NCBI GenBank assembly: GCA_039818205.1
Contig: JBCBUK010000006.1
Coordinates: 160,001-224,000 of the forward strand
DNA length: 64,000 nt
Reading direction: 5' to 3'
Origin: Verrucomicrobiota bacterium
GTDB taxonomy: Bacteria > Verrucomicrobiota > Verrucomicrobiia > Opitutales > Cerasicoccaceae
Of this stretch, positions 27,926-41,466 are shown one piece after another. Within the stretch, counting starts at the first letter, position 1, and each line of letters opens with the position of its first letter. The position numbers and the translations under genes are program-made. The notes below the pieces were generated by a model. The model worked only from the letters and a program-made list of their open reading frames with translations. It was not told the origin of the DNA and ran no database searches.

Positions 27926-29497
27926 ATGCAAAAATTGGCCTACCTCTCGCTTTGTTTTGCTGCGGCAATTTCCCTGAATGCTGCAGACCGCCCCAATATC
28001 ATTTTCATCATGTCAGACGATCATGCCGCAGAGGCATTCGGCGTCTACGATAGTCACCTTTCCGGGCTGGACCCGACTCCCAACCTAGATCGCTTGGCGG
28101 CGGAGGGGGTGTTGTTTGAAAATGCCTTTTGCAATAACTCGATATGCACACCAAGTCGCGCGAGCATTATGACGGGTCAGTATCCGCAGACGAACGGCGT
28201 GCTCGACCTCGATGGCGTGTTAGAACCCGAGAAGCAGTACTTGCCCATGGAAATGAAAAAATTGGGCTACTCCACTGCGATGATTGGCAAGTGGCATTTG
28301 AAGAGCGAGCCAGTGAAATACGATTACTACAAGGTGCTCCCGGGGCAGGGTTTATATTTTGATCCCGTTTTCCGTGAAAAGGGGCGGGGCGAATGGCCGG
28401 ACAATGTCGTGGAGTCGACCGGACACTCCAGCGACGTTATTACCGATATCACAATTGATTACCTGGAGAACTTAGATCGCTCCAAGCCCTTCTTTATCAT
28501 GCACCATTACAAGGCGCCGCATGACGAGTTTGAGTTCGCACCGCGGTACAAAGACTACCTGGCGGACGTAAAGGTACCTGAGCCAGAGAGCCTCTATAGT
28601 CAAAAGGGTTTCGGATCCATTGCGACTCGGGGCGAAGAGGATTCACTGCGCACGGTGATTGGCACGTCGGTTTCGGACCGGCATGAGCGCCGCAACTACA
28701 CGAAGAATTACGTGAAGGAGCCGGGCGACATGTCCACCGAGGAAAAGACGAGCCAATCCTACCAGACCTACCTCAAAGACTACCTGCGTTGCGTGAAGGG
28801 AATTGATGATAACCTCGGGCGTCTCTTTGATTACTTGAAGGCAGAGGGTCTTTGGGAAAATACCATCATCATCTACACCGGTGACCAGGGCTTCATGCTT
28901 GGTGCGCATGACCTGATCGATAAACGTTGGATGTATGAGGAGGCCATGCGCATGCCGCTGATCATTCACTATCCGAAAGAGCTGCAAACTGGCGTTGAAA
29001 CCGATTTAATTGTTAACAATACGGACTTTGCCCCAACGATGATCGACTTGGCCGGCGGCGAAGTTCCGGATTACATGCAAGGGCGAAGCTTTGCCAACAC
29101 GCTTAAGGGCTTGCCTGAGGAGGACTGGCGCACCTCGACTTATTATCGGTATTGGATGCATATGATTCACCACTGGGTTCCGGCGCATTTCGGAGTCCGT
29201 ACGAAGGACTATAAGCTGATCCTTTATTACGGGAAAAACTATGTGCCGGAAGAGAACTGGAATGACTTCTATTGGGGTAAACAATACGAGGGTTACCTCG
29301 GAGAAACTCCGGTTGCCTGGGAGTTCTACGACCTCCGCAACGATCCCAATGAGATGACCAATCAGTATGGCAACCCAGAGTATGCTGCGGTGATCAAGGA
29401 ATTGAAAGCCGAGCTAGAGCGTAGCCGGATTGAGCTCGATGAAACGGATGAGCAATACCCGGAGTTGCAGGCAATCATTGAGGCTAATTGGCAGTAA
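27926..29497 (+). CDS. Exported formylglycine-dependent sulfatase (S1; resembles S1_11-type 6-O-sulfatases)
   Basis: Signal peptide, MSDDH, CTPSRA, GKWH, GDQG, DKR, YYRYWMH; subfamily is a motif impression only. Confidence 0.92.
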   Translation: MQKLAYLSLCFAAAISLNAADRPNIIFIMSDDHAAEAFGVYDSHLSGLDPTPNLDRLAAEGVLFENAFCNNSICTPSRASIMTGQYPQTNGVLDLDGVLEPEKQYLPMEMKKLGYSTAMIGKWHLKSEPVKYDYYKVLPGQGLYFDPVFREKGRGEWPDNVVESTGHSSDVITDITIDYLENLDRSKPFFIMHHYKAPHDEFEFAPRYKDYLADVKVPEPESLYSQKGFGSIATRGEEDSLRTVIGTSVSDRHERRNYTKNYVKEPGDMSTEEKTSQSYQTYLKDYLRCVKGIDDNLGRLFDYLKAEGLWENTIIIYTGDQGFMLGAHDLIDKRWMYEEAMRMPLIIHYPKELQTGVETDLIVNNTDFAPTMIDLAGGEVPDYMQGRSFANTLKGLPEEDWRTSTYYRYWMHMIHHWVPAHFGVRTKDYKLILYYGKNYVPEENWNDFYWGKQYEGYLGETPVAWEFYDLRNDPNEMTNQYGNPEYAAVIKELKAELERSRIELDETDEQYPELQAIIEANWQ

Positions 29498-30584
29498 CAA
29501 CATCGGCGCCAAACTCAACGAAGGCTGGCGTTGGAATGGCAAGCGAATGTTCCGTTGGCGTGAGGAGCCCGGTATCGGGATCGCGCTTCAGGCATGCCAG
29601 TAAGTCAGATTGTTGATTTGCAATGAGCAGGTGGCTATCAGTTGGGCTCAGGCACATATGTCGGGGAATGTTTCCCTGACAGTCGGTGTGCCCCATCAAA
29701 GCTAGCAGACCCGATGTTGGGTCGACGGCCAAGGTCGCGATGGTGTTGTGACCGCGATTGGCAACGTAAAGATGGCGCCCGTCTTGGCTAAGGCAAAGCT
29801 CTGAGCAATGGCTGGCACCTTGGTGGTTCTCCGGCAGTGTCGAGACAAGATCGAGCAAGCCGAACTCTCCGGTTTCCGCCGCGTAGCGTAAGACGGCTAT
29901 TTCCGAGGTGAGCTCCAATACACAGTAGGCGATCTCGCCAGTCGCATTAAATAACATGTGCCGTGGTCCGCTTCCGCCGGGGGCGTGGAACACGGGCCCA
30001 TGTTGCAGCTTCCCCTCGTTGACATCCAGCTCGTAGCTGCAGATCCGATCGGTTCCGAGGTCGACGAGAAAGGCAAAGCGATTGTCGGGACTCGTAAATG
30101 CTGCATGCGGATGCGGTGCCTCTTGGCGTTCGGTGTTTGGGCCACTACCGGATAGCTGAATCGAGTCAGTGGGTGCGCCTAGATGGCCATTAGTGTTAAC
30201 TGGATAGACCGCCATGTTGCCCTCGACGTAGTTGGCGCAGAGTAGCCAGCTGCCGCTTTGGTCGAGTTTAATGTACGCAGGCCCCTTTCCGAGCGAGGAG
30301 CACTCCTGCAGCTTCTGAATGTGGTGGTCCTTGCCGATCTCAAATACGCTTAGGCAACCATCTTCGCGTCCTTCGTAGTCATAGATTTCGCTAATGGCAT
30401 AAAGGCGATTACCAGCAGCGTTCTGGCAAAGATAGGAACTGTTCATGACGGCTTCCGAGCGGTTGATCTCCCGCATGGATCCGTCCTTCGCGTCGAACTC
30501 GATGACATGTATACCGTCGGCTTTGCCATGGACGTGGTCCATGCGACGGGTATAGGTGCCGATGTATGCGTAGGATTTTGACAT
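29484..30584 (-). CDS. Beta-propeller lactonase (6-phosphogluconolactonase/Pgl family)
   Basis: YIGTYT, ANY.EG, RQEAPHPH, DLGTD, GSGPRH, NRGHN, PRH; no signal peptide. Confidence 0.92.
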   Translation of the reverse strand: MSKSYAYIGTYTRRMDHVHGKADGIHVIEFDAKDGSMREINRSEAVMNSSYLCQNAAGNRLYAISEIYDYEGREDGCLSVFEIGKDHHIQKLQECSSLGKGPAYIKLDQSGSWLLCANYVEGNMAVYPVNTNGHLGAPTDSIQLSGSGPNTERQEAPHPHAAFTSPDNRFAFLVDLGTDRICSYELDVNEGKLQHGPVFHAPGGSGPRHMLFNATGEIAYCVLELTSEIAVLRYAAETGEFGLLDLVSTLPENHQGASHCSELCLSQDGRHLYVANRGHNTIATLAVDPTSGLLALMGHTDCQGNIPRHMCLSPTDSHLLIANQQSDLLACLKRDPDTGLLTPTEHSLAIPTPAFVEFGADVVTAN

Positions 30585-30631
30585 GGCTAGTTGGTGGGCC
30601 GAGATTTTGTGACTCAGCCAACCAACTAGCT
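30585..30631 (-). promoter_or_regulatory. Long intercistronic hairpin between maoC-like gene and lactonase
   Basis: GCTAGTTGGT (30586-30595) / ACCAACTAGC (30621-30630) perfect arms plus inner GGC/GCC and GAG/CTC pairs. Confidence 0.65.
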
Positions 30632-40677: not shown

Positions 40678-40695
40678 TCTAAAACACGAAATAAC

Positions 40696-41466
40696 ATGAG
40701 TATTCTAAACCAATTTGATCTCTCTGGAAAAGTTGCCCTCGTTACGGGTTGTAAGCGCGGCATTGGTAAAGCGATGGCGATTGCCCTGGCGGAAGCCGGA
40801 GCCGATGTTATCGGCGTAAGCGCTAGCTTGGAAACCAGTGGTAGCGCCGTTGAGCAGGCAGTCACTGCCTTGGGGCGTAAGTTTACGGCTTACCAATGCG
40901 ACTTTAGTGACCGTGAGTCACTGTATAAGTTCATTGAGCAGGCCAAGTCCGACAACCCGGTGATCGATATCCTCGTAAACAATGCTGGCACAATCCTCCG
41001 GAAGCCTGCTGCTGAGCACGGCGACGATCTCTGGGACAAGGTCATTGAGGTGAACCTGAACGCCCAGTTTATTTTGACGCGTGAGATTGGCAAGGAGATG
41101 GTTACGCGTGGATCCGGTAAGGTGATCTTCACCGCATCGCTCTTGACCTTTCAGGGTGGCATCACGGTTCCTGGCTACGCCGCGAGTAAGGGCGCCGTTG
41201 GTCAGTTGACCATGGCATTTGCTAATGAATGGGCTGGCAAGGGGGTGAACGTTAATGCGATCGCTCCAGGCTATATCGATACCGATAACACCGAGGCATT
41301 GCGAAACGATCCCGTCCGCAGCGAACAAATCCTGGCTCGAATCCCAGCTGGTCGTTGGGGTAAGCCCGAGGACTTTATGGGGCCGACCGTGTTTCTGGCG
41401 TCACCCGCAGCCGATTACATGAGCGGGCACGTGATGCTTGTCGATGGTGGCTGGATGGGCCGCTAG
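40696..41466 (+). CDS. kduD: KduD-like SDR (2,5-diketo-3-deoxy-hexonate reductase)
   Basis: TGCKRGIG, NNAG, ASLLTFQGGITVPGYAASK, DGGWMGR. Confidence 0.9.
   Translation: MSILNQFDLSGKVALVTGCKRGIGKAMAIALAEAGADVIGVSASLETSGSAVEQAVTALGRKFTAYQCDFSDRESLYKFIEQAKSDNPVIDILVNNAGTILRKPAAEHGDDLWDKVIEVNLNAQFILTREIGKEMVTRGSGKVIFTASLLTFQGGITVPGYAASKGAVGQLTMAFANEWAGKGVNVNAIAPGYIDTDNTEALRNDPVRSEQILARIPAGRWGKPEDFMGPTVFLASPAADYMSGHVMLVDGGWMGR

Follow-up and report, generated by a model that had tools for sequence, protein, structure and literature searches.

A widespread gene module of a signal-less solute-binding-fold protein, a CoA-transferase and a dehydratase, and its proposed role in the catabolism of 2-O-methyl sugars

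The DNA analyzed here (the window; 64,000 nt, G000:C6:160001-224000, where G000 is the window's own genome and L, P and G numbers denote compared loci, proteins and genomes) has Opitutales metagenome-assembled genomes as its closest named relatives. It carries a divergent locus around an IclR-family regulator, built on a solute-binding protein (SBP)-fold protein, CoA-transferases and dehydratases. All 12 open reading frames (ORFs) named in the original prediction, which was made from the sequence alone, were found at their positions and in their families using Pfam and NCBIfam profiles. On the forward strand lie the family marker, a signal-less protein of the MalE/SmoF fold (SBP_bac_1/8, 31954..33102), two family III CoA-transferases, CaiB1 (33099..34232, PF02515, Asp171) and CaiB2 (34225..35379, PF02515, Asp174), and a crotonase of the enoyl-CoA hydratase type (ECH_1, 35376..36170, PF00378, Glu116 and Glu137). 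The overlaps between these four genes, also predicted, were measured as 4, 8 and 4 nt. They are followed by an aldehyde dehydrogenase (ALDH) paralogous to 3,6-anhydro-L-galactose (AHG) dehydrogenase (ORF 36097-37659, with the start likely at 36199, giving 36199..37659, as judged from orthologue lengths; Cys290, Glu256, Gly450), an Amidohydro_2 family lactonase (37700..38548, PF04909), a Gfo/Idh/MocA aldose 1-dehydrogenase (38576..39643, Pfam), a Zn-dehydrogenase (ZnDH; Zn-ADH, 39661..40677) and a KduD-like protein (40696..41466). The last two are common to the AHG route and are named here after the 5-dehydrogenase and 5-reductase of the 2-keto-3-deoxy-L-galactonate (L-KDGal) route. On the reverse strand lie the IclR-family regulator (31081..31848, PF09339 and PF01614), a MaoC hot-dog dehydratase (30626..31078, PF01575, Asp38-x4-His43) and a beta-propeller (Pgl-type) lactonase (29484..30584, PF10282).

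Locus L002 contains 11 of these genes in identical order (63-89% identity) at a different chromosomal site, and the arrangement is therefore not due to chance. The SBP, both CaiB, Gfo and amidohydrolase genes are single-copy in G000, with no further close copy of ZnDH or KduD there. The Gfo enzyme shows 47-52% identity to the dehydrogenase of rhizobial L-fucose clusters, and the amidohydrolase 44-49% to their lactonase, with a match to the L-fucono-1,5-lactonase model that is under the cut-off. The KduD-like protein scores 327 bits on TIGR01832 (cut-off 339). Beyond the coordinates originally predicted, a two-domain RhaM-family mutarotase (27067..27774, reverse strand, two Pfam rhaM stretches) has 33-36% identity to the mutarotase within rhizobial and Martelella clusters, and probably serves the aldose branch. 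The Pgl-type lactonase is present as predicted, but is peripheral to the module, because it is absent from L002 and is displaced and 38% alike in L052; its homologue in L068 is 26% identical. Of 85 loci, 19 have an IclR gene close to the SBP gene. A candidate -35 hexamer followed by two 12-nt near-palindrome copies (31901-31912 and 31920-31931) occupies 31893..31931 on the forward strand. Of 13 upstream regions, that of the window counted, 8 have two copies of the near-palindrome at a spacing of 19-20 nt, and two have none; shuffle values for it are biased, because the consensus came from the same regions. The pair at 31901-31931 is probably an operator for IclR, a putative assignment from the DNA motif.

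To describe the occurrence of the module, the SBP family was searched, yielding 3895 clusters at E ≤1e-20 (8000 scored) and 851 representatives at 50% identity (E ≤1e-30). Whole genomes were sampled from three groups, and the gene is present in 15 of 301 from the phylum of the window, 1 of 201 from the phylum of G301, and 6 of 401 in a class sample of Alphaproteobacteria (the class of G304; 4 candidates scored per genome). It is also found on 147 plasmid records, 90 of them Sinorhizobium. We tallied 113 loci, dropping duplicates and short copies (L003, L005, L037-L051, L066, L071, L077); the metagenome loci were the best 80 of 499 confirmed. A full-flank set of 64 loci had ≥4 kb on each side. 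Within this set, a CoA-transferase lies ≤4 kb from the SBP gene in 59 loci, and the dehydratase is MaoC only in 45, ECH only in 10, both in 4 and neither in 5. Three components make up the core of the module: the signal-less SBP-fold protein, a CoA-transferase of family III and a dehydratase. In several phyla, genes for a sugar dehydrogenase, a lactonase, a mutarotase, RhaT or sugar ATP-binding cassette (ABC) transporters and glycosidases accompany the module. Literature searches, covering titles and abstract openings with subscription journals mostly outside their scope, returned among the matches listed no description of the module, no match to a characterized pathway, and no catabolic route for 2-O-methyl-fucose, 2-O-methyl-xylose or 2-O-methyl-anhydrogalactose. 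The Zobellia transcriptome supplements contained no CaiB or MaoC row, and the S. meliloti locus tags taken for the module gave one unrelated paper in the literature and no rows in the GapMind paper text and supplements. The module is real and widespread, and apparently undescribed, in keeping with the novelty originally proposed.

The AlphaFold2 model of the SBP-fold protein (pLDDT 96) gave TM scores of 0.84-0.85 to SmoF at 18% identity, which confirmed the class II SBP fold (MalE/SmoF) by predicted structure. The listed structural matches are all binding proteins, and an ESM Atlas search returned SBP clusters only. Signal peptides were judged by N-terminal length and hydropathy, without SignalP. 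The window protein has 11 residues ahead of W12, and the corresponding N-terminus is <20 residues in 240 of 253 homologues with W12 aligned (269 examined), bearing out the predicted lack of a signal; P0134 and P0137 have longer N-termini that are signal-like in appearance. A Pfam scan found no permease or ATPase genes in the window locus, and ABC genes near other loci bring their own SBP. A role as an ABC-transporter component was rejected, as the protein lacks both an export signal and a cognate permease/ATPase. Over 150 distant representatives, W12, H14, R16, D65, H66, D117, Y235, Q306 and R339 are kept at 94-100% (R16 146/147, D65 146/148, H66 139/148, D117 148/149, Q306 148/148), and these residues would be placed in the cleft. 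A second SBP family, apparently signal-less too, lies between CaiB and Gfo in 38 of 85 loci (for example L067:18661-19788 and L058:13380-14582), and is absent from G000.

The original prediction left the SBP-fold protein without a role, yet its gene alone is common to all versions of the module, those without a nearby CoA-transferase included. Fusions join the protein to CaiB in three cases (P0121, P0123 and P0124) and to an enolase in one (P0122). G156 has the SBP gene and yielded no close CaiB; in L086 the SBP gene lies beside a related enolase (11512-12639, 40% alike to that of P0122), with no CaiB nearby. Its persistence without CaiB, fused to or beside an enolase, suggests that the SBP-fold protein acts after dehydration, on the free acid. 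The P0122/L086 enolase belongs to an uncharacterized subgroup (best PDB match 3sjn, E 1e-74), and is a candidate CoA-free dehydratase for a 2-O-substituted aldonate. The predicted complex of CaiB2 with the SBP-fold protein scored 0.00 against a mark of 0.32, which carries no weight either way.

The catalytic Asp of family III CoA-transferases, presumably equivalent to Frc Asp169, is kept in 132 of 132 aligned sequences (Asp171 and Asp174 in the window). All 132 have Gln-Asp at what we take to be the catalytic His position of alpha-methylacyl-CoA racemase, and a racemase role for CaiB was rejected on account of this replacement of the His in the His-Asp pair. CaiB2 is 58% identical to CaiB1, and the fusion of two such paralogues in L054:8927-11233 and L055:8373-10670 (765-768 aa) hints at a heterodimer. 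The pair is frequent in non-agar loci too, and was rejected as an agar-specific trait. The L-carnitine CoA-transferase model gave 70-77 bits against a cut-off of 413. The D-x4-H dyad is found in 66 of 66 MaoC-type ORFs, Asp38/His43 in the window enzyme, which is 62% identical to MaoC of the S. meliloti 1021 cluster and has a PaaZ domain as its best NCBIfam match. The window crotonase retains both catalytic-type Glu residues (Glu116, Glu137), and crotonase adjoins the ALDH gene in 7 of 7 ALDH loci and in the agar locus L075 of Persicobacter JZB09. MaoC is predicted to remove the 3-OH of an acyclic L-galacto acyl-CoA. For the crotonase, an agar add-on, the predicted reaction is opening of the 3,6-anhydro ring in the CoA ester. 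Cleavage of a beta-oxidation type was rejected, as the locus contains no thiolase or hydroxyacyl-CoA dehydrogenase. Elsewhere in the genome, an orphan second MaoC (G000:C5:105437-105955) is 66% identical to a MaoC paralogue inside the module in other genomes; it seemingly lacks the dyad His and may be a non-catalytic partner subunit. One-base gaps interrupt CaiB of S. meliloti 1021 (L077:18851-19983) and MaoC of strain R14 (L070:21490-21929), by decay or sequencing error.

The module of the window neighbors an AHG operon (42563..47536, reverse strand) encoding AHG cycloisomerase-like (ACI, 42563-43654) and AHG dehydrogenase-like (AHGD, 43680-45140) proteins and a signal-less GH2 protein of mannosidase-like architecture (45170-47536). 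The GH2 gene also adjoins the module in L001, L054, L075 and L130, and is 78-80% conserved ahead of AHGD/ACI. The ALDH is 46.7% identical to the AHGD-like protein, in agreement with the predicted paralogy, and belongs to a separate clade with members at 61-79% identity in other phyla. In 9 of 9 ALDH orthologues a Gly (Gly450 in the window) replaces the equivalent of AldA Glu443; the Glu is kept in E. coli AldA (443), in PDB 6j75 and in three AHGD-like sequences. We predict that the ALDH is a 2-O-methyl-AHG dehydrogenase. Cycloisomerase orthologues (77-100% identity) occur in 5 of the 301 genomes, all among the 15 that bear the SBP gene. In all five, the crotonase and ALDH pair, an agar add-on, lies beside the SBP gene, whose product is 67-100% identical to that of the window; the other 10 SBP-bearing genomes have cycloisomerase-like matches of ≤35% or none. 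Persicobacter JZB09 carries GH2, ECH and ALDH in an agar locus with AHGD, ACI, ZnDH and KduD, and the SBP/CaiB/Gfo/MaoC core on a different plasmid; in Jannaschia M317 the genes are split between two plasmids, one with ALDH/CaiB/ECH/SBP and the other with ACI/ZnDH/KduD. Orthologues of ZnDH (50-78%) lie in AHGD/ACI loci L075, L076, L168, L169 and L170, and those of KduD (78-85%) in AHG loci L075, L076, L168 and L169. The ZnDH and KduD genes are in the module in L002 and in the AHG operon in L169, and this switching suggests that the module and AHG routes both end in L-KDGal, to which AHG is converted by the dehydrogenase and cycloisomerase (PMC11219438); a six-step AHG proposal is mentioned in PMC9706016. 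Sulfatases and GH29 flank the marine loci. In the window, the AHG operon is flanked by a secreted protein with no Pfam match (41526-42407, reverse strand; 44% paralogue on C5) and by two beta-porphyranase-type genes and a sulfatase gene (48087-53336, forward strand).

The agar link originally proposed is thus supported for the version with ECH and ALDH, which is tied to AHG in 5 of 5 cycloisomerase genomes; the core is not agar-specific, but is widespread beside pectin and fucose genes, most loci seen having pectin rhamnogalacturonan II (RG-II) or L-fucose gene contexts. In S. meliloti, Martelella and Pararhizobium the module lies in or near clusters with annotated L-fuconate dehydratase, mutarotase, short-chain dehydrogenase/reductase (SDR) and fumarylacetoacetate hydrolase-family (FAH) genes. 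In Rufibacter, a GH139 homologue (PDB 9hyq, E 5e-272) is located just upstream of the SBP gene on the same strand, with one 79-aa ORF between. Of the 113 loci, 5 have a GH139-like gene ≤10 kb from the SBP gene, and 5 have, near the SBP gene, a homologue of PDB 5mt2, which we take to be the RG-II enzyme GH137. Other neighbors of soil loci include GH141, GH127, apiosidase, GH78, GH106, GH28 and pectinesterase genes. The MaoC subtype is found in L-fucose clusters, and the crotonase subtype with an SDR, an aldose epimerase and a 2-keto-3-deoxypentonate dehydratase-like FAH gene, whose product of ~383 aa matches PDB 9kkt (E 9e-127; presumably Caulobacter XylX) and 2-keto-3-deoxy-D-arabinonate dehydratase 2q18. 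Martelella has both subtypes around a single SBP gene. RG-II contains 2-O-methyl-L-fucose and 2-O-methyl-D-xylose (bioRxiv 10.64898/2026.03.13.711244), and the two subtypes match these two methyl sugars. According to PMC12282258, GH139 is the only family that cleaves the 2-O-methyl-L-fucose of RG-II (structures 9HYQ and 9HMB). In L058 (7371-9379) and L135, genes for an NAD-dependent epimerase and for a stand-alone domain of cobalamin-independent methionine synthase are inserted in the operon ahead of the SBP gene, with RuBisCO-like and four-carbon acid kinase genes following in L058; these genes may point to methyl reuse or to apiose. In L052, a bacterial nitric oxide synthase oxygenase gene (17296-18432) lies directly after the module.

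The downstream genes all handle 2-keto-3-deoxy acids, and an oxygen is therefore expected at C2 of the substrate. Both the requirement for CoA and the Glu to Gly change in the ALDH suggest that this oxygen is capped, and the modification common to the agar, RG-II and fucose contexts is 2-O-methylation; 2-O-methylated 3,6-anhydrogalactose is documented in red-algal galactan, where 2-O-sulfation also occurs (PMC10890634). We consider it likely that the locus catabolizes 2-O-methylated L-galacto sugars of red-algal galactans, as the marine version of a widespread 2-O-methyl aldose module. This agrees with the original proposal that an O-methylated sugar acid is activated with CoA, independently of O2, and so supplies the L-KDGal genes, a proposal to which gene content, AHG co-occurrence and the shared ZnDH/KduD lend support. 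It narrows the methyl position to O-2, as the 4-O-methyl-L-galactose then suggested explains none of the other contexts.

In the pathway that we propose, the Gfo enzyme and lactonase would oxidize 2-O-methyl-L-galactose, and the ALDH paralogue 2-O-methyl-3,6-anhydro-L-galactose, each to a 2-O-methyl aldonate. Ordinary enolase-type dehydratases require a free 2-OH, and for this reason the acid would be activated as a CoA ester by the family III CoA-transferase. MaoC would then act on the open-chain ester, eliminating its 3-OH, or the crotonase on the anhydro ester, opening its 3,6-ether. Either reaction would give a 2-methoxy-2-enoyl-CoA, whose CoA would be transferred to a further substrate molecule, in the manner of the carnitine cycle of CaiB/CaiD. 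In the least certain step, the SBP-fold protein may hydrolyze the enol ether by protonating C3 and adding water at C2, so that methanol is released together with L-KDGal; ZnDH and KduD would convert L-KDGal to 2-keto-3-deoxygluconate (KDG), as synteny suggests. In soil bacteria the same core would process 2-O-methyl-L-fucose (MaoC type) and 2-O-methyl-D-xylose (crotonase type) of RG-II; the 3R configuration of L-fuco and L-galacto acids and the 3S configuration of D-xylonate correspond to the preferences of MaoC and crotonase, respectively. We tentatively assign the SBP-fold protein as a cytoplasmic hydrolase carrying out the demethylating step, because the enol ether needs hydrolysis and this is the only universal gene without another role. 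Thiaminase I, cyclohexadienyl dehydratase and MqnA are SBP-fold enzymes and provide precedent for catalysis in the SBP cleft, and the enol-ether hydrolysis of chorismatase/isochorismatase shows that alpha-alkoxy acrylates can be hydrolyzed by general-acid catalysis. None of these enzymes is among the listed PDB sequence and fold matches of the SBP-fold protein, and no SBP-fold enzyme is known to act on sugars. On a reading to which we give slightly less than even chances, the family would be a new enzyme class hydrolyzing 2-methoxy-enoates, part of an O2-, cobalamin- and folate-independent, methanol-releasing route, in which a CoA-transferase/dehydratase shuttle or a special enolase is used and the dehydratase is swapped according to C3 stereochemistry, for the 2-O-methyl sugars of plant RG-II and red-algal galactans. 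The full mechanism, all of whose chemistry is drawn from sequence, is possible at about that level.

Several observations weigh against this interpretation. The window crotonase does not fit the stereochemical rule if its substrate is L-configured at C3, so that a ring constraint or a D-anhydro sugar has to be invoked; a priming CoA donor has to be assumed, because the locus has no dedicated CoA ligase; the placement of the conserved SBP residues in the cleft is presumed from MalE motifs; and the binding of the substrate 2-OH by AldA Glu443, which we assume, could not be confirmed in print. L083, one of four loci with the pentonate-dehydratase-like gene, has MaoC and not ECH, ECH loci L063-L065 lack that gene, and the SDR of the crotonase subtype (type B) reaches only 161-177 bits against the XylB cut-off of 400. 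GH139-like genes occur in 25 of 301 genomes, in 4 of 14 other SBP-bearing genomes and 3 of 10 non-agar ones, and a genome-level search found none in G000. Finally, many of the 80 metagenome loci are kin, and the locus counts are therefore not independent.

The alternatives differ in how much of the proposal they would change. The SBP-fold protein might be a non-catalytic cytoplasmic binder, sensor or subunit acting on the same 2-O-methyl substrates, with methanol lost by a second MaoC/crotonase step or spontaneously. Its plain MalE/SmoF sugar-binding fold with only binding proteins among the listed matches, the second signal-less SBP family in 38 of 85 loci, and the PaaZ domain match of MaoC, a domain known to hydrolyze an enol ether, all fit such a role; we nevertheless judge it unlikely, as the SBP gene persists in G156 without a close CaiB and beside or fused to an enolase (L086, P0122), and the module usually comes with a separate regulator of the IclR or LacI type. 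Since this alternative and the hydrolase assignment share the same substrates, catabolism of 2-O-methyl sugars is, over the two together, highly probable. Less likely still is a different modification, such as 2-O-sulfate, 2-O-acetyl, 3-O- or 4-O-methyl, or, in the window, a D-anhydro sugar of carrageenan-type galactans. Red-algal anhydrogalactose can be 2-O-sulfated (PMC10890634), sulfatases and GH29 flank the marine loci, the crotonase handedness would suit D-galacto at C3, and GH139 co-occurrence is weak; against this, the soil contexts are RG-II-like, where methylation at O-2 is the modification documented in PMC12282258, O-3 is blocked in anhydrogalactose, the downstream genes belong to the L-KDGal route, and 3-O-methyl acids could presumably undergo enolase-type elimination without CoA.

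CoA-dependent dehydration of unmodified L-galactonate or L-fuconate, the simpler alternative of the original prediction, would account for the Gfo, lactonase, MaoC and IclR orthologues in rhizobial L-fucose clusters and for the lack of a close enolase-type L-fuconate dehydratase in G000 (best 26%). It turned out to be weak, and we regard it as very unlikely: the rhizobial clusters already hold an annotated L-fuconate dehydratase beside the module, G000 has a separate conventional oxidative cluster on C9 in which a UxaA-family dehydratase accompanies FAH and SDR genes, and the ALDH paralogue, crotonase and SBP-fold protein are left without explanation. In addition, CaiB of S. meliloti 1021, a strain that we take to grow on L-fucose, and MaoC of strain R14 are each broken by a one-base gap, perhaps a sequencing error. 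Least probable of all is an unrelated organic-acid pathway sitting in polysaccharide loci by chance. The nearest solved CoA-transferases do use formate, oxalate and glutarate-type acids (~30% identity or E ~1e-54), but the sugar dehydrogenase, lactonase, mutarotase, RhaT/sugar ABC transporters and glycosidases stand alongside the module in several phyla.

The window also contains a block of a known type for oxidative demethylation (18606-22124, reverse strand), encoding a ferredoxin, a cytochrome P450, a class III-like alcohol dehydrogenase and an esterase. The P450 (20548-21699) has PDB 6g5o as its best match (E 3e-108), which we take to be a 6-O-methyl-galactose demethylase P450 (CYP236A).

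GH139 frees 2-O-methyl-fucose from RG-II, and the module names candidate genes for its catabolism. If the proposed hydrolase activity is true, thousands of proteins labeled 'ABC substrate-binding protein' would be re-annotated, a sugar-acting member would join the small set of SBP-fold catalysts, and the route would be a biological source of methanol, allowing fuller use of methylated agar and pectin. The module offers a stepwise prediction that is checkable with three monosaccharides.

Among known systems, the P450 CYP236A, which demethylates 6-O-methyl-D-galactose, likewise belongs to algal galactan loci and takes an O-methyl group off a sugar, but is O2-dependent, acts at O-6 and releases formaldehyde; to our knowledge, the sugar O-demethylation described so far is of this kind. 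CaiB/CaiD carnitine dehydration and FldABC-type systems also combine a family III CoA-transferase with a dehydratase and recycle CoA, but their substrates are not sugar acids and they form no enol-ether product. The module is embedded in clusters resembling the non-phosphorylative L-fucose and Weimberg routes, the former recognized from record annotation. With the L-fucose route and the Weimberg D-xylose pathway (PMC7046635) it shares the dehydrogenase, lactonase and downstream 2-keto-3-deoxy-acid enzymes, whereas their single dehydratase step is replaced by a CoA-transferase, MaoC or crotonase, and the SBP-fold protein. The AHG pathway (PMC11219438, PMC9706016) is related through the paralogous ALDH (47%), the same predicted product, the shared ZnDH/KduD and adjacent genes; as described there, it operates without CoA or an SBP-fold protein, the cycloisomerase working on the free acid. 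The Klebsiella michiganensis deoxyribonyl-CoA pathway (PMC6365646) also proceeds through a CoA thioester of a sugar acid, from a sugar without a free 2-OH, but its description names a CoA synthetase, a hydroxyacyl-CoA dehydrogenase and a thiolase, none of which is found in the module locus. By analogy with these systems, the module would amount to a non-phosphorylative sugar pathway with a shuttle of the CaiB/CaiD type built into it.

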